Of a stretch of 64,000 nucleotides of DNA, positions 30,526 through 53,929 are shown in pieces. Each line of letters opens with the position of its first letter. The first letter of the stretch is position 1. The stretch comes from Candidatus Moraniibacteriota bacterium (GTDB taxonomy: Bacteria; Patescibacteriota; Minisyncoccia; Moranbacterales; UBA2206), in assembly GCA_003483065.1 (NCBI GenBank), contig DMWY01000007.1, forward strand, positions 10,452 through 74,451, given 5' to 3'. The translations under genes were made by a program, and so were the position numbers. The notes under the pieces were generated by a model. The model was not told the DNA's origin and did no database searches. It saw only the letters and a list, made by a program, of their open reading frames with translations.

Positions 30526-30620
30526 AGCAACGAGATAGTCGGGACAAATTCCAGTGGAAAAGTTTCAAGCAATTGAAACTACCGATATATCTGACCTCGG
30601 CGGAGAGCCGGGGTTTTATG
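30526..30620 (+). ncRNA. Candidate small RNA (~95 nt) between a plus-strand promoter and an intrinsic terminator
   Basis: TTGACA (30492-30497), 16 nt, TATACT (30514-30519); then a 7-bp stem cctcggc/gccgggg (30595-30613) followed by TTTTATGTTTTT; no ORF between them. Class unknown. Confidence 0.25.
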
Positions 30621-39173: not shown

Positions 39174-39929
39174 GTGGAAATAATTAAAATGGAAGAAAAA
39201 GACGAAAAAACAAATGAAAAAGTTCAGGCTCTTCGTGAAATGATTTATAGCGCCGAAAAAACTTTGCAAGGCGCCAAATCAATGCTACTCCAACTTGAAG
39301 GAAAAAAGAAAGTTGGTCGCAGAAAAAAAATTAGCGACGAAGATGCCGAGGGTGGCAGAGTAATCGAAGGCACTTTTGACGGGCAAATTATGATCGGCAC
39401 TGACGGCAAACAATATCCGGTTCCAGCCAACTATGCTTCAAAATCAAAACTTGTCGAAGGAGATATGTTGAAACTCACCATTACTCCAGACGGGTCTTTC
39501 ATATATAAACAAATCGGTCCAACAGACAGAAAAAGAGTTATCGGAGTGGCCAATCTTGATGCGGATGGCGACTATTTTGTGGCAGCTGAAGGCAAAGCCT
39601 ATAAAATTCTTTTGGCTTCTATCACCTATTTCAAAGTCGAACCAGGAGATGAGGTTACTTTAGTGCTACCAAAAAATATTGACTCCGATTGGGGTTCCAT
39701 TGAGAATGTTTTGCAAAAAACTGCCAGCAAGAAAAAAGAGGAGTCAAATTTTTCACAAAAAAGTATTTATGAAGTCTTGAAGGAAGAAAATAAATTCGAG
39801 GAAAAAGCAGATGATGTTGAAAAAAATGACGCCCCAACAAACACTAGCGCTTCCCTAATCGATGAATGGGCGCCAGATCTTGAAGAACTAAAAAAAGAAT
39901 TAAATAATAATTTGAATTCAAACTCTTGA
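39174..39929 (+). CDS. Hypothetical protein (251 aa)
   Basis: N-terminal coiled coil, central beta-rich region, acidic C-terminus. A perfect DnaA-box-like TTATCCACA lies upstream at 39081-39089. Confidence 0.45.
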   Translation: MEIIKMEEKDEKTNEKVQALREMIYSAEKTLQGAKSMLLQLEGKKKVGRRKKISDEDAEGGRVIEGTFDGQIMIGTDGKQYPVPANYASKSKLVEGDMLKLTITPDGSFIYKQIGPTDRKRVIGVANLDADGDYFVAAEGKAYKILLASITYFKVEPGDEVTLVLPKNIDSDWGSIENVLQKTASKKKEESNFSQKSIYEVLKEENKFEEKADDVEKNDAPTNTSASLIDEWAPDLEELKKELNNNLNSNS

Positions 39930-40594
39930 TTTTTATGAAAACAAATATACAAGCTATGCCAAAAAAAGATTTTTGGCTCGGAATGCTATGTGGCCTTATA
40001 ATTGGTCTTCTTTTTATGCCAGTGCTGGCTGTAGCCAAACCTGACCTCTACATTCGACTGAAAATGGCCATTCTCCCCTTCTTTCTCATTGGCACACCTC
40101 TTGGTTTGGCTATCGCTCACATAATCGGCAAAAAAATTCCTGTCATTTGGCAAATTGCAAAATTTGGTGTCACTGGAGTTTTAAATGTTTTGGTTGATTT
40201 TGGAGTTCTCACAATTCTAACAATATACCTTAAAAAATATTTTGCCATTAGTTCCACCGATATTTTCTTGGGTTTTGGCGTTCTAATCGTCACTACTTAT
40301 TCTCTCTATAAAGCCATCTCATTTACCATTGCCAATATCAATAGTTATTTTTGGAATAAATATTGGACTTTTGATGAAAACAAACAAAAAAAATCAGAAT
40401 TTGGCCAATTCTTTGTGGTGAGCATTGTTGGCTTTATCATAAACGTAGCTGTAGCTTCTTTCGTTTTCAACTATATTCATCCTTTCGCTGGAATGGGCTC
40501 AGATCAATGGGGGCTAATTGGTGCGGCTGCCGGATCAATTATTGGGCTCGTTTGGAACTTTTTAGGCTATAAATTCTTGGTTTTTAAGAAATAG
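39926..40594 (+). CDS. GtrA-family membrane protein
   Basis: KFGVTGVLNVLVDFGVLTIL and FGQFFVVSIVGFIINVAVASFVF resemble GtrA-like four-TM proteins. Confidence 0.5.
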   Translation: MIFMKTNIQAMPKKDFWLGMLCGLIIGLLFMPVLAVAKPDLYIRLKMAILPFFLIGTPLGLAIAHIIGKKIPVIWQIAKFGVTGVLNVLVDFGVLTILTIYLKKYFAISSTDIFLGFGVLIVTTYSLYKAISFTIANINSYFWNKYWTFDENKQKKSEFGQFFVVSIVGFIINVAVASFVFNYIHPFAGMGSDQWGLIGAAAGSIIGLVWNFLGYKFLVFKK

Positions 40595-40612
40595 TTCTCT
40601 TTTCATACTAAT

Positions 40613-40643
40613 CAAAAAAAATCGGTGCTCAACCGATTTTTTC
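40613..40643. terminator. Intrinsic terminator (atcggt gctca accgat with flanking A and T runs)
   Basis: aaaaaaaatcggtgctcaaccgatttttt. Confidence 0.55.
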
Positions 40644-40648
40644 GTTTA

Positions 40649-40766
40649 TTGCCAGTAGCATTTCGGAGTGCTATAATATTTCATAGGGGTGCCATTTGGC
40701 GCTCCAAATTTATTAAATTCCGCGTGAGTCCGCGTTCATTCCGCGTGAGTCCGCGACGAATGTATT
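40649..40766 (+). promoter_or_regulatory. dnaX promoter (TTGCCA-N17-TATAAT) and leader with two 17-nt GC-rich direct repeats
   Basis: -35 at 40649-40654, -10 at 40672-40677; TTCCGCGTGAGTCCGCG at 40718-40734 and again at 40739-40755 (21-nt period); dnaX ATG at 40767. Confidence 0.45.
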
Positions 40767-42404
40767 ATGTCTGAAACACTTTATCGAAAATATCGACCGA
40801 AAAATTTTTCCGAAATTATCGGGCAAGCGCATATCGTGCGCACGCTTTCTAATTCGATAACAAATAGTCGCATTGGTCATGCTTATCTTTTCACCGGTCC
40901 ACGCGGGACTGGCAAAACTTCTATCGCAAGAATTTTAGCCAAAACAATTAATTGCGAAGATTTGAAAGACGCCATTACTTGCGAAAAATGTCCGTCCTGC
41001 AAAATTATCACTGAAAAAAAATCCTTAGACATAATTGAAATTGACGCTGCTTCCAACACTGGCGTGGACAACATCCGAGAACTTCGTGAAACTGTAGCGC
41101 TCTCCAATGCCTCATTGAAATTCAAAGTCTATATCATCGACGAAGTTCATATGCTTTCCACCGGCGCTTTCAACGCACTTTTGAAAACCCTCGAAGAACC
41201 ACCAGCTCACGTAGTTTTCATTCTGGCTACCACGGAAATTCACAAAGTTCCTCAGACTATCATTTCTCGTTGCCAAAGATTTGATTTTACTCGCTTGCCA
41301 ATTGGAAATATTATCGAAAAATTAACACTGATTACCAAGACAGAAAAAGTCAAAATTGAGAAAGAAGCACTTGAGATGATTGCCATTTCCGCCGAAGGAG
41401 GCATGAGAGACGCCGAATCACTTCTTGGACAAATTATTTCATTGGAAGACAAAAATATTACCGTCAAAGAAGTAGAAGAAATTCTAGGCACCGCTGACAA
41501 AAAAACCGCTGAAGAAATGGCTGAGATGATTGTGAAAAAAAATTCCTCAGGCGCGATTGCAAAAATCAATGAGCTTTTGGAAAATGGTTATGATTTGGAA
41601 ATTTTCAACAAATCCCTAGTTAACTATCTTCGCCAGATGATGATTGTGAAGATTGATCCGAGTCTCAAGAAATATTTTTCCGCCGAAATGACTACTGAGC
41701 GTTTGGAAAAAATGGTGAAACTTTGCGAAACGGCCGAACTACCCCAAATCATTTCTGCTATAAATTTATTCATGGAAGCCCAAAGCAAAATTTCAAGTTT
41801 CATCCTCCCCCAACTTCCCCTAGAAATTGCCGTCATCAAAGCCACTCATAAATTTCCAGTAGAAAAAGTTGAATATGAAATTGAAAAACCAGAAATCCCC
41901 CTTCCCCCTTCGGGGGAAGGTGCCCGAAGGGCGGATGAGGGGGAAACTAATTCAGACAGTAAAAACATAATTACTAAAACAAAAATAATAAAAGAAGAAA
42001 TTCAACCAGTAATAGTGGAAGAAAAATTTGTGGATAATGGCCAAGATTTGGACATGGAAAAAGTGCGTGCTAATTGGAAAAAACTACTTATTGATATCCG
42101 CCCCTTCAACCATTCCCTCTCTGCCTTGCTATGCAATTGCCAGCCAACCCAGGCAAAAAAGAACATTCTTACCCTCGCCACACCCTATGACTTTTATCGA
42201 GAAAGATTAAACGACGCCAACAATAAATTGACAGTTGAGCAAGTGTTTAGTAAGATATTAAAATCGACTATTCGGATTGAAATTGTGATCGACAAGAACC
42301 TAATCCCAAAAACCCAAGAAGAACAACCACCCAAAAAATCCGAACAAAACTCCCTCCTCACTGATGCATTGGAAATTATGGGCGGGAAAGTCGTGGAAGA
42401 GTAG
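40767..42404 (+). CDS. dnaX: DNA polymerase III subunit gamma/tau
   Basis: YRPKNFSEIIGQAHIVRTL, GPRGTGKTS, Zn module CEKCPSCK, and the SRC motif within IISRCQRF. Confidence 0.9.
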   Translation: MSETLYRKYRPKNFSEIIGQAHIVRTLSNSITNSRIGHAYLFTGPRGTGKTSIARILAKTINCEDLKDAITCEKCPSCKIITEKKSLDIIEIDAASNTGVDNIRELRETVALSNASLKFKVYIIDEVHMLSTGAFNALLKTLEEPPAHVVFILATTEIHKVPQTIISRCQRFDFTRLPIGNIIEKLTLITKTEKVKIEKEALEMIAISAEGGMRDAESLLGQIISLEDKNITVKEVEEILGTADKKTAEEMAEMIVKKNSSGAIAKINELLENGYDLEIFNKSLVNYLRQMMIVKIDPSLKKYFSAEMTTERLEKMVKLCETAELPQIISAINLFMEAQSKISSFILPQLPLEIAVIKATHKFPVEKVEYEIEKPEIPLPPSGEGARRADEGETNSDSKNIITKTKIIKEEIQPVIVEEKFVDNGQDLDMEKVRANWKKLLIDIRPFNHSLSALLCNCQPTQAKKNILTLATPYDFYRERLNDANNKLTVEQVFSKILKSTIRIEIVIDKNLIPKTQEEQPPKKSEQNSLLTDALEIMGGKVVEE

Positions 42405-42454: not shown

Positions 42455-42751
42455 ATGTTTTATACTTATGTATTAAGAGGTATAAAAAATAAAAGATTAT
42501 ATGCTGGAATAACGAATGATTTACGACGCCGTTTCAAAGAGCATAATGAAAAAAGGGGTGGTGCATATACAAGAATAAACGCGCCATTTGATTTAATATT
42601 TTATGAAGCATACATTTACAGAGAAGATGCTGAGAAAGCAGAGTTGTTTTTTAAAAGCGGATATGGCAGAGAAGTATTACGGGATAAATTGAAACATTAT
42701 TTTATGTTAAACCCTCATCGGCAATCCGCCGAAGAGGCGGGTGGGGAGTAG
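42455..42751 (+). CDS. GIY-YIG nuclease family protein (second copy of the UPF0213-type)
   Basis: MFYTYVLRGIKNKRLYAGITNDLRRRFKEHN; the 3' end overlaps the first 10 nt of the tRNA-Gln. Confidence 0.75.
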   Translation: MFYTYVLRGIKNKRLYAGITNDLRRRFKEHNEKRGGAYTRINAPFDLIFYEAYIYREDAEKAELFFKSGYGREVLRDKLKHYFMLNPHRQSAEEAGGE

Positions 42752-42813
42752 CCAAGTGGTAAGGCAGGGGCCTTTGAAGCCCCCACGCGAAGGTTCGAAT
42801 CCTTCCTCCCCAA
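42742..42813 (+). tRNA. tRNA-Gln (anticodon UUG)
   Basis: Folded by hand: acceptor TGGGGAG/CTCCCCA (7 bp), D-arm GCC..GGC, anticodon stem GGGGC/GCCCC with loop CUUUGAA, T-arm GAAGG TTCGAAT CCTTC, discriminator A, no encoded CCA. Confidence 0.85.
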
Positions 42814-47553: not shown

Positions 47554-49853
47554 TTAATTTATAGGATTAAAATCAAAAATCCCCTCTTCAAAATCTTGAT
47601 TTATCCCTTTTTCCCAACGAACAAACATTGGGTCATTGTAGTTCGGAAGTTCCGGACCAAGGGGAAAATCTTTATTCACATAAAAAAGTATTGAATGTTT
47701 TTCCGGTTCGATTTGTTGGCGCACTTCCGAAGCTTTGTATTTTTTTGATTTATCTTCGGAAATTTTTTTGCCAGAAGCTATTTTATAATACTTAATTTCT
47801 CCGGAAACATTTCCCGTAATCATAGACTTTGAAGAAACAATTTTTTCATACGAACCAAAATTTTCCTTGGGCAAATTAGGTAATTCTTTATTCAAGAAAT
47901 TTCGCCAGATAGGAGCGGCCACAAAAATCCCATCCGAACCATATTTCATAGGGGTGTTGTCATTATTACCAACCCAAACTCCAACAGAAATATTAGGCGT
48001 ATATCCAACCGTCCAAGCATCGCGAAATTCTTGAGTTGTCCCGGTTTTTGCCGCCACCGCATAATCCTTAAACGCCAAAGGGGTGTTACTGCCAAAAACA
48101 GCCGATCTAGCAGAATTGTCCGAAAGAATAGAATTTATTTTTCTAGCGACTTCCTTCTCCAAAACATTCTTACTTTCATTGGAATATTCTTTTTTAATAT
48201 TCCCTTTCTGATCAGTAATTTTTTGAATAACTTTGAGTTGGTTTTTTTCTCCGTCATTGGCAAAAACTGAAAAAGCCGAAGTCATTTCAAGCAACTTCAC
48301 TTCTCCACCACCCAAAACAAGCGAGAGTCCAAAGCGACTCCTATTTTCCAATGTGGAAATCCCCAAACTCTCAGCCAAATCTATCGTTTCATTTATTCCG
48401 GCTAGATACAGAGTTTTGACTGCGGGAATATTAAGCGACGATGACAAGGCCTGACGCATAGAAACAAGTCCGCTAAAATTTCCATTATAATTATTTGGTA
48501 TATAATTTTTGCCCGACCCATCTGGACCAAAATTTGTCGGCGCATCCCAAATTAATGTTTCCGGTTGATAACCTTTTTCAAAAGCCTTGGCATAAGCAAA
48601 CGGCTTAAATGACGACCCTGGTTGGCGAGGACTGGTCGCGATATTCACTTGCCCGTCAATTAAAGAATCAAAATAATCTTTGCTTCCCACCATCGCGAGG
48701 AGCTCCCCTGTTTTAGGAGAAATTGCAACTAATGAAGCGTTGTTTGCCCCATATTTCTTGTTGTTTTCCACGCCTTGACGCACTGATTCCTCAGCTCTTC
48801 TTTGCATATCATAATCAAGCGTAGTATAAATTTTCAAACCTTCCGTTTCCAAATCTAAATTTCCATATTCTTTTTCTAAAAATTCCTTAACATAAAAAAC
48901 AAAATGAGGCGCTTGGATATTTTTCTTAGGGGGTATAATTTTTTTCAAAGTATCAATCCCCAACGCTTCTTTAATCATTTTTTCGTCAGCCAACCCAAGA
49001 GTCACTAATTGTCTAAGAATATTTTTTTGCTGAGAAATTAAGGCTGTCTGATTGTTTCCATAAGGAGAATAGAAGGTTGTTGCTTTGGGAAGCGATGCCA
49101 GAAGAGCTGCTTCATCCAAAGCCAAATCAATCGCCCGCTTTCCAAAAAAAGTTTGTGCGGCGGATTCAATGCCATAAGCATTCGAACCATACGGAATTTG
49201 ATTCAGATAGAAGTCCAGGATCTCGTCTTTACTGAATTTTCGCTCCAGCTTTATGGCGATAATCGATTCTAGAATTTTTCTTTTTAGATTTTTATCCCGA
49301 TCCAAAAAAACATTCCTGGCTAATTGTTGGGTAATTGTTGGGTAATTGTTGATCCACCCTGTTGAAATTGTTTGTTTTTTATGTTAACTTCCAATGCCCG
49401 CAAAATTGAAGGGATATCAATTCCTATATGATCGTAGAAAGAAGCATCTTCTGAAACAATTGTTGCAACACGAATGGCATCAGGAATTTGATCGTGTGGC
49501 AAATTTTTCTTATTTTTTTCACCATAAATTTCATAAAGGATATGTTCTCCTGTTCGGTCATAAATAATTGTTGTGCCCTTTGAAACTCTATTTGGCAGTT
49601 CCTTGGCTTTTGGAGTAGCAAAGAAATAGATATAGATAAAAGAAAATAAAAAGATAAGAATTGTAAATAAAAAAATATATAAAAAAAACCTAGAAATCAT
49701 TCCCCTCTTTGATTGAGAAACGCCTTCTTTTTTGGAAAATTTTTCAAGAAAAAAACTAACCTTTTTTGAAAGTTTCTTTATTTCTTTAGTAAGAAAAGCC
49801 TTGTTTTTTGAATTTTTTTTCTTTTTCTCTTCCATTTGCTTAAATCTTAGCAT
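47554..49853 (-). pseudogene. Class A penicillin-binding protein (PBP1A-type transglycosylase/transpeptidase) split by an 11-bp tandem duplication
   Basis: ORF 49320..49853 ends ...EDASFYDHIGIDIPSILRALEVNIKNKQFQQGGSTITQQLPNN* (GT51 motifs 1 and 2). ORF 47554..49305 continues with GT51 motifs (KILESIIAIKLERKFSKDEILDFYLNQIPYG) and a transpeptidase domain (SSFKPF, KTGT). Deleting one 11-nt unit of taattgttggg (49321-49351, 2.8 copies) restores ...TITQQLARNVFLDRDKNLKRKIL..., the expected GT51 sequence. Confidence 0.75.
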
Positions 49854-51535: not shown

Positions 51536-53929
51536 CTATTTAGCTATGATCTTCCCCCCTTGCCCGATTTGATCCAACTTAACTGAGAGAAGTTTTGAGA
51601 TGCCTTCTTCGCCCATGGTGACGCCATACAGAAGCGATGCCTGACGCATAGTTTCGCGATTGTGAGTAATTGTGACAAATTGAGTTCTGTCGGAAAGCTC
51701 TTGCAAAATTCGACTAAAACGACGCGAATTAGCTTCATCTAAGGCTGCCTCAACTTCGTCTAGAATTGCAAAAGGTGGCGGATTATGAGAAATTATCGCA
51801 AATAAAAGCGCTAAGGATGTGAGTGATCTTTCACCACCAGAAAGCATTGAGAGATTGGCAATTCTCTTGCCAGGAGGGCAAGCTGAAATATCAATTCCGA
51901 TTTCGCTTCTTTCTTCCTGAATGTTCTCTTCTTCTTTTGCCTCCTCTTTTTCATTCTTATTTTCAGTCTCTCCTTCTACTAAATCCTCTTTGGCTTTTCG
52001 TCTAGAAGTTTGAATTTTGAGCTTAGTTAAATGAGCAGTTCCTCCACCGAAAATTATTCTGAAATATTTTGAAAATTCTTTGTTTATTTCCTCATAGGTA
52101 GTCGCAAATTTCACTTCAATTTTTTGATCCATCTCCTTTATCACTTCTCGAAGAGACACAATCGCGTCTTCTAAATCTTTTGATTCACCTTCCAGAAATT
52201 CAAAACGTTTTTGGGTTTCATTATATTCATCAATAACCATCGGGTCAATTCCTCCGATTTGTTCCATTTTTATTTTTAATTTATATATTTCATTTTCTAG
52301 AGCTTCTCGATTTATTTCTCCTTCGACAGGAACTAATTCCTCCACTTCTTTTCTCAGCTCAATTTTTATCTGATTTTTCAAATCTTCTTCGCGCACTTCC
52401 ACTCTCGCTAGAGCAATTTTAGAATCATTAAATTTATCCTTGAGTTTATTCAGTTCGTCTTGTTTCGTTCTTAATTTTCCTTCGATTTCAAAAAATTTCC
52501 TGCGTTTTTCGCGATCCAACAGAATTTCCTGTTGCATTTCCTTTTCAGCCAGCAACAATTCTTCTTGCGCCTTTTTGATATCCTCTCTAATCTTAATTAT
52601 TCTTTCTTGCAGTTCAATTAACACTAAAGATTTTTCTGCATAGTCCTGTTTTTTCTGTGTCGTTCTGTTTTCTTCTGTGTTTTTTTGTGTCTTTAATTCT
52701 GTGTCGTTCTGTGCCTTTTTCCCTTTTTCAATTTCTATTTTCAAATCATATAGTCGCTGGGCGATAACTCTGGCAAATTCTTTTATATCTTGTAAATCCT
52801 CCATTTTTTCGGCGTTCTCAATTTTTTCAATCAGTTTTTCCTGTTCCTTTTTTATTTCTTCCAGTTTTTCTTTTATATACGCCCTGTCAACTAATTGCTC
52901 TTTGGGCAAACTAATTTCTGTTTCTCTGATCATTTCAACATTTTTTTGCTTTTCTTTTTCAATCTCAATTCGTCCTTCGGTTATGATAAGTTCTCTTTCT
53001 AATTGATTCAGTTTATTTCTTTGTTCTCTTTGTTTATTTTCCAACTCAAGATGTTTTGCTTCATTTATTTCATTTTTTTCCTCCTTCGACTCATTGCCAA
53101 TTTCATCCGTAAGTTTGTCTACTTCTCGTTGCATATTGATGAGAATTCTGCCAGATTCTTCTTTTTCTTCGTTTAATCTATTTCTTTCGCGCTGAAAATT
53201 ATGCCACAAATAGGAAAACAATCTGGTTTGTTTATTTGAGAGTTCTATCGATACTCCCTCGCTTTCTGCTGCCTTATCCGCCTGTCTTTTTAGCATTCGC
53301 AAGTGCGGTTTTATCTCTTCCATCAGTTCATTAGCTCTTTGTAAATTTTGACGCGTAGAATCAAGCTTACGCAAAGATCTTTCTTTTTTGATTTGATATT
53401 GTTTCACGCCAGCCGCATCTTCGATGACTGATCTTCGCTCAAATGGCGTAGCGTTGAGTACTGAGTCGGCCATACCTTGATTAACTACAGCATAACTTTC
53501 TTTGCCCACTCCCGCTTTAGCTAGTATATCCACAATATCTTGCAAGCGAACTCGTGAACCATTGATCAAATATTCGCTTTCTCCAGAACGAAAAATTTTT
53601 CTTGTCACTGAAACTTCTTCAAATTCCAGTGGAATTCTCTTGTCACTATTATCCAAATATAGCGTGACATAAGCACTGCCAAGTCTAGCTTTTTTTCCAC
53701 TTCCTGCAAAAATAATATCTTCAGATTTTTTTCCGCGTAAATTTTTCATTGACTGCTCCCCCATCACCCAGCGAAGAGCATCAGCGATATTTGATTTACC
53801 CGAACCATTTGGACCAACAATCGCCGTAATACCTTGATTTGTTCCATTTTTGGAGTCAATTAAAAAGTCGAGGGTAGTTTTCGACGCAAAGGATTTAAAA
53901 CCTGAAATTTCGAGTTTTTTTAGATACAC
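51536..53929 (-). CDS. smc: SMC-family chromosome segregation ATPase (short, apparently hinge-less)
   Basis: N-terminal Walker A GPNGSGKSNI; C-terminal signature and Walker B LSGGERSLTSLALLFAI...FAILDEVEAALD; about 600 aa of continuous coiled coil with no Gly-rich hinge; rnc-smc synteny. Confidence 0.75.
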   Translation of the reverse strand: MYLKKLEISGFKSFASKTTLDFLIDSKNGTNQGITAIVGPNGSGKSNIADALRWVMGEQSMKNLRGKKSEDIIFAGSGKKARLGSAYVTLYLDNSDKRIPLEFEEVSVTRKIFRSGESEYLINGSRVRLQDIVDILAKAGVGKESYAVVNQGMADSVLNATPFERRSVIEDAAGVKQYQIKKERSLRKLDSTRQNLQRANELMEEIKPHLRMLKRQADKAAESEGVSIELSNKQTRLFSYLWHNFQRERNRLNEEKEESGRILINMQREVDKLTDEIGNESKEEKNEINEAKHLELENKQREQRNKLNQLERELIITEGRIEIEKEKQKNVEMIRETEISLPKEQLVDRAYIKEKLEEIKKEQEKLIEKIENAEKMEDLQDIKEFARVIAQRLYDLKIEIEKGKKAQNDTELKTQKNTEENRTTQKKQDYAEKSLVLIELQERIIKIREDIKKAQEELLLAEKEMQQEILLDREKRRKFFEIEGKLRTKQDELNKLKDKFNDSKIALARVEVREEDLKNQIKIELRKEVEELVPVEGEINREALENEIYKLKIKMEQIGGIDPMVIDEYNETQKRFEFLEGESKDLEDAIVSLREVIKEMDQKIEVKFATTYEEINKEFSKYFRIIFGGGTAHLTKLKIQTSRRKAKEDLVEGETENKNEKEEAKEEENIQEERSEIGIDISACPPGKRIANLSMLSGGERSLTSLALLFAIISHNPPPFAILDEVEAALDEANSRRFSRILQELSDRTQFVTITHNRETMRQASLLYGVTMGEEGISKLLSVKLDQIGQGGKIIAK

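Follow-up and report, generated by a model that had tools for sequence, protein, structure and literature searches.

The dnaX leader and its repeat

This study concerns a GC-rich repeat in the leader of dnaX on a 64,000-nucleotide stretch of contig DMWY01000007.1 from a Candidatus Moraniibacteriota bacterium, a member of the Patescibacteria. The whole of that stretch is called the window here; its GC content is about 36%, and its DnaX shares 77-95% identity with proteins that carry the annotation Candidatus Moranbacteria or Parcubacteria. The locus consists of a hypothetical gene, a GtrA-like gene, a terminator, a promoter, the leader, dnaX and a small GIY-YIG gene with a tRNA gene, an order common to most of the relatives retrieved. 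The GtrA-like gene is the open reading frame (ORF) at 39926..40594, for which the orthologous loci give PF04138 (GtrA), and the terminator behind it sets it apart from the dnaX transcription unit. From the terminator to dnaX the features are as follows:

40616..40648, plus strand: intrinsic terminator of the upstream GtrA-like gene, an 11-bp stem with a T run
40649..40677, plus strand: dnaX promoter, with -35 element TTGCCA (40649-54), 17-nt spacer and extended -10 element TGcTATAAT (40669-77), an 11/12 match
40686..40705, plus strand: hairpin of 8 bp at the predicted 5′ end of the transcript, GGGGUGCC-AUUU-GGCGCUCC, found in every leader allele
40706..40718, plus strand: A/U-rich box AAATTTATTAAAT (consensus of the relatives GAATTTAT), kept in all alleles and forming the left junction of the array
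40719..40755, plus strand: array of four TCCGCG hexamers (40719-24, 40729-34, 40740-45 and 40750-55) with spacers TGAG, TTCAT and TGAG
40756..40766, plus strand: right junction ACGAATGTATT, which reaches the start codon and is the same in all three array-bearing lineages
40767..42404, plus strand: dnaX, DNA polymerase III gamma/tau, 545 aa, with its ATG at 40767

Transcription of dnaX is predicted to start near 40683-40686. The array lies at about +34 to +70 from the promoter and ends 11 nt ahead of the start codon, and no Shine-Dalgarno motif is found in the right junction before the ATG. A preliminary description of this DNA had reported a 17-nt repeat present twice with a 21-nt period, behind a promoter of the form TTGCCA-N17-TATAAT and within a transcribed leader. 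Both observations hold, and the first can be refined. A search of the window returned exactly two copies of the 17-mer TTCCGCGTGAGTCCGCG (40718-40734 and 40739-40755) and no further copies even with three mismatches allowed, the expectation from shuffles being 0.03 matches. The exact repeat extends to 18 nt (ATTCCGCGTGAGTCCGCG, 40717-34 and 40738-55, period 21). Each 17-mer contains TCCGCG twice, and the true unit is the hexamer, arrayed at a spacing of 10/11/10 nt; Tandem Repeats Finder (TRF) gives the 10-nt period as well. Arrays of at least three phased TCYGYG units arose in none of 200 block shuffles of the window. Extension of the DnaX N-terminus through the array was ruled out by TGA stops in the dnaX frame carried upstream, so that the array belongs to the 5′ untranslated region (UTR).

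Distribution and constraint of the array among relatives

Eleven distinct orthologous dnaX loci, whose DnaX proteins are 72-95% identical, were compared. Both promoter hexamers are conserved in 11 of the 11, while the fourfold degenerate sites of dnaX differ by 0.2-0.5, and the promoter, the 5′ hairpin and the A/U box GAATTTAT are kept in all the orthologous loci retrieved. What follows the box differs, and four types of leader can be distinguished:

Hexamer array: the window, L005 and L092-95 (also L260)
AT-rich segment of 38 nt: L001, L002, L004, L086 and L087
Short AT-rich segment: L003, L096 and L098
Long AT-rich segment: L088-91

In a tree of DnaX each of the three lineages with the array has an array-less one as its nearest neighbour, the pairs window-L086 and L092-L088 both having 95% DnaX identity. 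Judged from this tree, the array has evidently been gained, lost or exchanged repeatedly. Since it is missing from the nearest relatives, at 95% DnaX identity, it is dispensable for dnaX. Alignment of the upstream regions thus shows a repeat that is patchy and confined to three lineages.

Where the array is present it appears, from the substitutions, to be old and constrained, with conserved hexamers and variable spacers. The fourfold sites of dnaX differ by 0.42 between the window and L005 and by 0.49 between the window and L092. In the latter comparison the array and its junctions show five changes, every one of them at one of the 13 spacer positions, and the 24 hexamer positions and 26 junction positions are unchanged; L005 adds two spacer changes and one C-to-T change within a hexamer. 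The AT-rich allele of L001, L004, L086 and L087 has, 40 nt ahead of the dnaX ATG, a 21-nt-period duplication of its own (GAATTTATCAAAATTTATTTA followed by GAATTTATATAATT). This allele is near-identical across lineages whose fourfold sites differ by 0.20-0.35 and, by the same kind of comparison, also seems to be under selection. A DnaX pattern scan of metagenome contigs was dominated by the generic motif YIIDEVHM and returned only relatives of 32-55% identity, of no use for the leader.

The 5′ hairpin with the A/U box (GAAUUUAU, 40686-40718) opens the dnaX mRNA in every Moranbacteria relative, whatever comes after it. Across seven distinct sequences 98% of the cells of the stem are paired, as against 41-57% for slid controls; four pairs change one-sidedly (GC/GU, UG/UA) and none two-sidedly, and the loop varies in length and sequence. 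No Rfam family was matched by 40686-40718. This part of the leader may be an mRNA-stabilising stem-loop or an element serving initiation without a Shine-Dalgarno motif.

A dispersed family of phased hexamer arrays

The architecture of the window array recurs far beyond dnaX. A scan of 185,579 species, each represented by a single genome (596 Gb in all), for the pattern TCCGCG-N4-TCYGCG-N4-6-TCYGCG-N4-TCYGCG matched at least 120 loci, where our own estimate under uniform base composition predicts about 0.1 matches by chance, and more in GC-rich genomes. Among the matches listed some do lie in GC-rich genomes, for which chance is plausible, and about 85 arrays lie in loci of less than 52% GC. 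At least 40 Patescibacteria loci carry a four-hexamer array in AT-rich context; the carriers listed are Saccharibacteria, Liptonbacteria, Vogelbacteria, Giovannonibacteria, Jorgensenbacteria, Wolfebacteria, Doudnabacteria, Magasanikbacteria, Staskawiczbacteria, Paceibacterota and Moranbacteria. The listed matches also include the same dnaX leader in Moranbacteria RIFOXYA12_FULL_35_19 (L260), and one metagenome-assembled genome (MAG), GCA_030654225, carries two arrays, the dnaX copy of L005 and a copy in atpA (L204). A scan of viral contigs with three hexamers gave 102 matches, mostly in GC-rich phage contigs, which were taken as chance; the median locus GC of the viral and genome matches pooled is 0.63.

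A logo of the 51 arrays listed for Patescibacteria loci defines the unit as D-TCYGCG-T, the first base being anything but C, and has no spacer consensus. The outer spacers are of 4 nt, as fixed by the pattern, and the middle spacer is of 5 or 6 nt, never the 4 that the pattern also allowed; four units spaced 10, 11-12 and 10 nt apart would thus all lie on one face of the DNA helix. An inverted partner arm stands immediately upstream in 17 of the 51 and at a distance of 70-700 nt, around cargo, in four, and about 30 arrays are solo. The window array fits the family unit: it has TCCGCG four times with spacers 4/5/4, each unit is preceded by T or A, and three of the four are followed by T. No reverse arm is found upstream of 40719, which makes it a solo arm. 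An all-against-all blastp comparison of the flanking ORFs, in which a shared neighbour such as a transposase would have stood out, found only host genes recurring.

The arrays have also been copied. One Saccharibacteria contig (L296) carries two elements of 82 nt that lie 242 nt apart and are identical at 79 of 82 positions, spacers included. Each consists of four reverse hexamers, the loop AGAATCT and four forward hexamers, and the sequences flanking one copy are, on either side, unrelated to those flanking the other, the boundaries falling at the outermost hexamers.

Comparable arrangements were seen in other phyla. Cyanobacteria have intergenic arrays of four CTCYGCG units with a spacing of 10/11-12/10 nt, usually followed by TTAAAAAA or a similar A/T-rich run; that of Nostoc sp. 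FACHB-152 (L276, 5373-5409) sits between cas4 and cas1, and arrays of the same type occur in L232, L246, L267, L286, L295, L305, L310 and L315. Similar arrays were found in Balneolaceae, Algoriphagus, Crocinitomicaceae and a Citrobacter MAG (L278, an inverted pair of ATCTGCG units). In a Saprospiraceae MAG (L256, 2088-2180) an intergenic pure tandem comprises at least nine copies of the 10-mer TCCGCGTGAA / TCTGCGTGAA, which equals the unit and spacer of the first half of the window repeat although the phylum is a different one.

In-frame copies inside conserved genes

About 38 of the 51 Patescibacteria arrays listed lie in frame, with no stop codon, in conserved-gene ORFs of 150-1600 aa. The host genes, recognised from sequence motifs, are atpA, infB, lepA, uvrB, ppsA/PPDK, leuS, cysS, valS/ileS, mnmA, fba, recG, thrS, the RNase J gene and mfd. 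Because 21 nt equal seven codons, the arrays encode heptad-like peptides, PR(E/K/Q)SA for one orientation of the array and NA(D/E)..RG for the opposite one; in one frame the window array would read IPRESAFIPRESA, which is typical of the family.

The alpha subunit of ATP synthase, AtpA, provides filled and empty sites. Of 120 homologs with at least 81% identity, no fewer than 63 have the sequence SEMLEF-PNGIY-GVALNLE (502 aa), an empty site regarded here as ancestral, and about 45 have an extra 9-26 residues at exactly SEMLEF^PNGIY (for example TPRTNADGTQNHAESIF, TTRTNADSTQTNAEKSVY, LPRQSEAKAGSNGIY and IPSLGHPMSNDRNDRKTSDVSNSVF). Several of these inserts, such as VSTQNNTEKKQNDTEDKQNDTEVVY, have visibly decayed, with TNAD changed to TNTE. 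The loop SEMLEF^PNGIY (P0121-P0240) is an insertion hot spot in Moranbacteria-like genomes, with at least four insert types, in both orientations, at one codon position. The types may descend from a single palindromic insertion of which different halves were lost, or insertion may have been site-specific and have happened repeatedly. Within the window a further tandem was noticed in smc:

52649..52718, minus strand: candidate decayed array, units TTCTGTGT with a period of 10-12 nt, in frame in the ORF 51536..53929 and encoding AQNDTELKTQKNTEENRTTQKKQDYAEKS

By its resemblance to the decayed AtpA inserts this tandem is probably a decayed copy of the array family; the strict phased scan of the window did not pick it up.

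Association with GxxExxY nuclease genes

In lepA of two Saccharibacteria (L255 and L296) the two arms stand about 400 nt apart, and the in-frame segment between them is a full-length GxxExxY protein, scoring 127.6 bits with TIGR04256 and 124.5 bits with PF13366 (PDDEXK_3) in L255. A profile search of the retrieved loci, begun with phmmer and iterated twice with hmmbuild and hmmsearch, added five loci in which a GxxExxY ORF lies next to an array: L202 (Thermoflexales), L287 (Omnitrophota), the two Bacteroidota loci L265 and L320, and L291. The arrangement 5′-[CGCGGA-N4]n, ORF, [TCCGCG-N4]n-3′ is clear in L202, L255, L287 and L296, and in L320, L265 and L291 the ORF adjoins the array without clean inverted geometry. 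GxxExxY genes bracketed by inverted arrays occur in four phyla. RAYT-like (REP-associated tyrosine transposase) ORFs occur close to arrays in L254 and L284 but are not enclosed by arrays, and RAYT was rejected as a general mobiliser.

As these loci had been chosen by their arrays, GxxExxY genes were also sampled independently of arrays, seven from plasmids and two from metagenomes of the Candidate Phyla Radiation (CPR). Each of the nine is a small ORF, and in the seven loci for which annotation or gene calls exist it is wedged between unrelated genes of the same strand, the contexts being fabD-X-fabG, radA-X, ade-X and ftsH-X-exonuclease. At least six of the nine are flanked by inverted repeats of a short unit, and the unit, which also takes the form TCCGTG, differs by lineage:

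L328 (CPR): TCTGC(G), 4+4 units
L324 (Gemmatirosa): TCCGCG
L326 and L327 (Bacteroides, Bernardetia): CTCTGTG
L321 (Treponema): CGAATCCGTG
L338 (Amesbacteria): GTGCTAATC

In the Amesbacteria loci L338-L347 the gene stands between ftsH and a 5′-3′ exonuclease gene, with GATTAGCAC twice upstream and GTGCTAATC twice downstream. The comparison of these flanking repeats suggests that each nuclease subfamily has its own repeat unit, and protein and unit look as if they co-evolve, a co-variation that would be expected if the GxxExxY protein recognises the unit.

A D...E-x-K triad is invariant in the GxxExxY family, the structure of which is predicted with confidence as a minimal PD-(D/E)XK fold (predicted local distance difference test, pLDDT, 92.8). 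A Foldseek comparison with the PDB returned only generic PD-(D/E)XK folds with template modelling (TM) scores of at most 0.53 (Cas4 SSO0001, lambda exonuclease and I-Bth0305I 3r3p), and in a search by sequence no solved structure matched GxxExxY significantly. The one remark on PF13366 that the literature yielded reads "function unknown, multiple transfers" (PMC3424549). Neither the arrays nor a connection between them and GxxExxY were found described there, although database entries may hold remarks, and the array family is apparently undescribed in the literature.

Origin of the dnaX repeat

Our results suggest, with a probability of about 0.6, that the array at dnaX is a solo (orphan) arm derived from a selfish element that is tied to genes for GxxExxY nucleases. 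The family is seen in three forms: as two inverted arms, [CGCRGA]n ... [TCYGCG]n, around a small PD-(D/E)XK gene of the GxxExxY family (PF13366/TIGR04256); as a compact element of about 82 nt with two inverted arms, a short loop and no gene, resembling a MITE (a transposable element of the miniature inverted-repeat type) or a REPIN; and as solo arms such as the window array. In Patescibacteria the copies lie between genes and, in frame, at positions in essential genes that correspond to surface loops. The dnaX arm lies in the 5′ UTR, with the hairpin and A/U box before it and the start codon after it; only some Moranbacteria lineages have it, and it would be co-transcribed with the gene. The hexamers could be recognition sites of a protein, most likely the GxxExxY nuclease, which may explain their retention; the nuclease would bind or cut the arrays and drive their spread. 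At dnaX the hexamers may have been retained for interaction with GxxExxY or with a host protein, rather than for RNA structure. The array could affect dnaX expression as a roadblock or through mRNA structure or stability, an effect that is possible and that cannot be essential.

We would go further only tentatively, at slightly less than even odds, and propose that the GxxExxY (PF13366) proteins are the nucleases of undescribed, widespread selfish elements, the ends of which would be inverted arrays of phased 6-9-nt units co-evolving with the protein. The Patescibacteria copies would then be gene-less derivatives (82-nt doublets and 37-nt solo arms) that settled in frame in essential genes (atpA, infB, lepA, uvrB and aaRS genes) and in leaders such as that of dnaX, the hexamers subsequently coming under selection.

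Several points weigh against the solo-arm interpretation. The copy at dnaX is known from only three lineages, and the test of selection on it rests on 7-8 substitutions. The array and the AT-rich allele are both far more conserved than synonymous sites, so that the leader as a whole is under selection and the segment may have a local regulatory role. The genome scan forced the 4/4-6/4 architecture, and the matches listed give no copy numbers; the intergenic CTCYGCG matches of Cyanobacteria and Bacteroidota may form a family of their own, though a related one. Around the two L296 copies no target-site duplication is seen, and we know of no transposition mechanism for the GxxExxY nuclease family. 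The arrays could instead be pre-existing targets that a nuclease gene entered. Finally, the profile search found no GxxExxY (PF13366-like) ORF in the 64-kb window.

The main rival is that the arrays are sites of a conserved chromosomal protein, be it nucleoid-organising, active in segregation or a global regulator, which the host selects, that GxxExxY genes merely associate with them, and that the dnaX copy is a roadblock or operator. We regard this as unlikely, though it fares better than the other alternatives. The helical phasing of 10/11/10 and the "dimer of dimers" layout would suit it, as would the finding of one core hexamer with unrelated spacers across very deep lineages of Patescibacteria. 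The presence of the array in one and its absence from another of two near-identical relatives, at dnaX and at atpA, is however odd for a needed site, and an origin by point mutation does not fit insertions of 30-80 nt into proteins of conserved length. That the hexamers are kept while the spacers drift near-neutrally, against the AT mutational pressure of a genome of 36% GC, and that the comparison of flanking ORFs found no common neighbour gene, are also in keeping with a host protein; the near-identical 82-nt copies in unrelated flanks, the change of the unit along with the GxxExxY subfamily and the decay of many AtpA inserts count against it.

A control element specific to dnaX is less probable still, whether as an operator with 21-nt direct repeats for a repressor or activator, or as an attenuator or hairpin in the RNA that acts on translation. 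The preliminary description had favoured such a distinct cis-regulatory element. Its placement just downstream of a strong, conserved promoter and just before a start codon lacking a Shine-Dalgarno motif, and the conservation of hexamers and junctions among three carriers, are what a dedicated element would lead one to expect. The closest relatives nevertheless have the same promoter and 5′ hairpin without the array, and the identical architecture is found inside atpA, infB, lepA and other genes and flanking GxxExxY genes. The idea of a repeat operator stands in one respect, in that phased repeats with fixed recognition bases and free spacers (0-1 of 24 hexamer positions changed against 5 of 13 spacer positions) resemble a protein-binding array and fit the family; it does not stand as an element restricted to the dnaX promoter or conserved at orthologous promoters. 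As for RNA, the window copy folds well (-17.4 kcal/mol, z = -3.2), but the hairpins of L005 and L092 are indistinguishable from shuffles (z = -0.9 and -1.5), and among seven substitutions none is compensatory and one breaks a predicted pair. Arrays in reverse orientation within mRNAs often read CGCAGA, which would break CGCG:CGCG pairing. The RNA hairpin was rejected as the selected feature, and from these comparisons the conserved object appears to be the hexamers and not an RNA fold. No terminator stands between the array and the ATG, and no Rfam match was obtained for the leader.

In Bacillus subtilis the signal recognition particle (SRP) RNA gene (scr/ffs) lies directly upstream of dnaX. 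This synteny and the presence of a promoter are all that would favour a diverged SRP RNA or other small RNA gene at this position, a reading to which we give hardly any weight: the covariance scan of 40560-40830 matched no Rfam family, SRP included, even at E<=10 (only terminator look-alikes at about 40614-40649), no SRP RNA reached the gathering score in the window or in nine related loci (96 kb), no GNRA-tetraloop or symmetric-loop arrangement is seen in the leader, and AT-rich sequence takes the place of the segment in L001, L003, L004, L086-L091, L096 and L098. The earlier view that this is not SRP RNA is thereby borne out, while its suggestion of a diverged small RNA is not, and SRP RNA and known small RNAs were rejected for the leader. 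Equally improbable is a meaningless local 21-nt tandem duplication or chance repeat, for although slippage does occur in the leader, where the AT-rich allele is duplicated at a 21-nt period as well (GAATTTAT ... GAATTTAT), the repeat has been kept in three lineages that are widely diverged at fourfold sites, and the same hexamer architecture occurs in dozens of unrelated loci and phyla and in none of the shuffles.

Comparison with known systems

By analogy, the behaviour of the array family seems closest to that of Rickettsia palindromic elements (RPEs), reportedly described by Ogata et al. in 2000, and of MITE and REPIN systems. RPEs are mentioned in PMC1458961 and PMC10969869. Like them, the arrays would be short selfish repeats in reduced genomes; they are found both between genes and in frame at tolerated positions of conserved genes, to whose products they add a peptide, with a palindromic paired form and no known transposase. 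In-frame insertion with presence and absence between relatives is likewise found, which we take as a functional resemblance and not as membership. RPEs are 100-150 nt long and conserved over their whole length, whereas the arrays conserve only phased units of 6-7 nt with free spacers, occur as lone arms, associate with a PD-(D/E)XK gene and span Patescibacteria and other phyla, not Rickettsia.

With MITEs and with the repetitive extragenic palindromic (REP)/REPIN-RAYT systems (PMC3116915, PMC3733652, PMC10969869) the arrays share inverted doublets of about 80 nt next to singlets, many dispersed copies, near-identical copies in different flanks and one protein-coding "master" gene flanked by the same repeats. 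The inverted ends, small size, lack of a transposase and multiple copies of a MITE are seen in the paired 82-nt form of L296, not in the solo window copy. In contrast to REP and REPIN sequences the logo has no GTAG/CGTC tag, and an arm is a phased array of hexamers and not one hairpin. The linked gene encodes a GxxExxY PD-(D/E)XK nuclease instead of an HUH/Y1 or DDE transposase, insertion inside ORFs is common, and there is no target-site duplication. Unlike in either RPEs or MITE/REPIN systems, the nuclease gene itself can sit in frame within a host gene.

The PD-(D/E)XK fold is also used by homing enzymes, among them I-Bth0305I and I-Ssp6803I. As with homing endonucleases, a small nuclease gene lies in or between conserved genes (fabD-X-fabG, radA-X, ftsH-X-exo, lepA), the distribution of GxxExxY and the arrays is patchy, and the same sites, atpA and lepA, have been reoccupied. 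No carrier intron or intein was recognised, the lepA ORF is read through as the host protein, GxxExxY has flanking repeat arrays that classical homing genes are without, and its nuclease activity is predicted. Phased repeats also make up operators, such as the OmpR/PhoB-type boxes (10-11 nt), LytTR (21 nt) and the MraZ boxes (10 nt). The dnaX array is like these in having four short direct repeats on one helical face beside a promoter; its sequence is unrelated to theirs, it is not conserved at orthologous promoters, and the arrays are mostly intragenic and have no linked regulator. The PARCEL repeats (PMC2996958), 25-residue repeats in proteins of unassigned function, were set aside as a different thing.

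Implications

The result removes a tempting wrong annotation at dnaX, that of an SRP-like RNA or a dedicated riboregulator. If the link to GxxExxY/PDDEXK_3 is as we propose, it would give this large "function unknown" family of many phyla its first functional context, that of bracketed selfish elements, and the arrays offer testable substrates for the uncharacterised nuclease. Small CPR genomes tolerate in-frame repeats in core enzymes (ATP synthase alpha, IF2, LepA), as Rickettsia does RPEs. The insertions could serve as handy markers for strain-level population genetics, and they are a caveat for gene calling and for the alignment of marker proteins in CPR phylogenomics.

Other observations in the window

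Directly 3′ of dnaX lies the small GIY-YIG (URI-domain) ORF of 98 aa (42455..42751), the 3′ end of which overlaps the tRNA gene at 42742-42813; this dnaX / GIY-YIG / tRNA layout is kept in most relatives. At 49317-49351 an 11-nt unit, ACAATTACCCA on the minus strand, occurs three times at a place where two imperfect copies would encode GGSTITQQLARN. The extra copy of ACAATTACCCA shifts the frame and splits a PBP1A-type transglycosylase/transpeptidase gene into two ORFs, 49853..49320 (177 aa) and 49305..47554 (583 aa), the gene being undivided in the relatives L001 and L003 (about 757 aa). A pseudogene, a slippage-prone switch and an error of assembly are all possible explanations of the split. 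A full-length match to the Rfam DUF3800-II RNA motif is located at 30527-30596, with 75.4 bits against a gathering score of 43.2.

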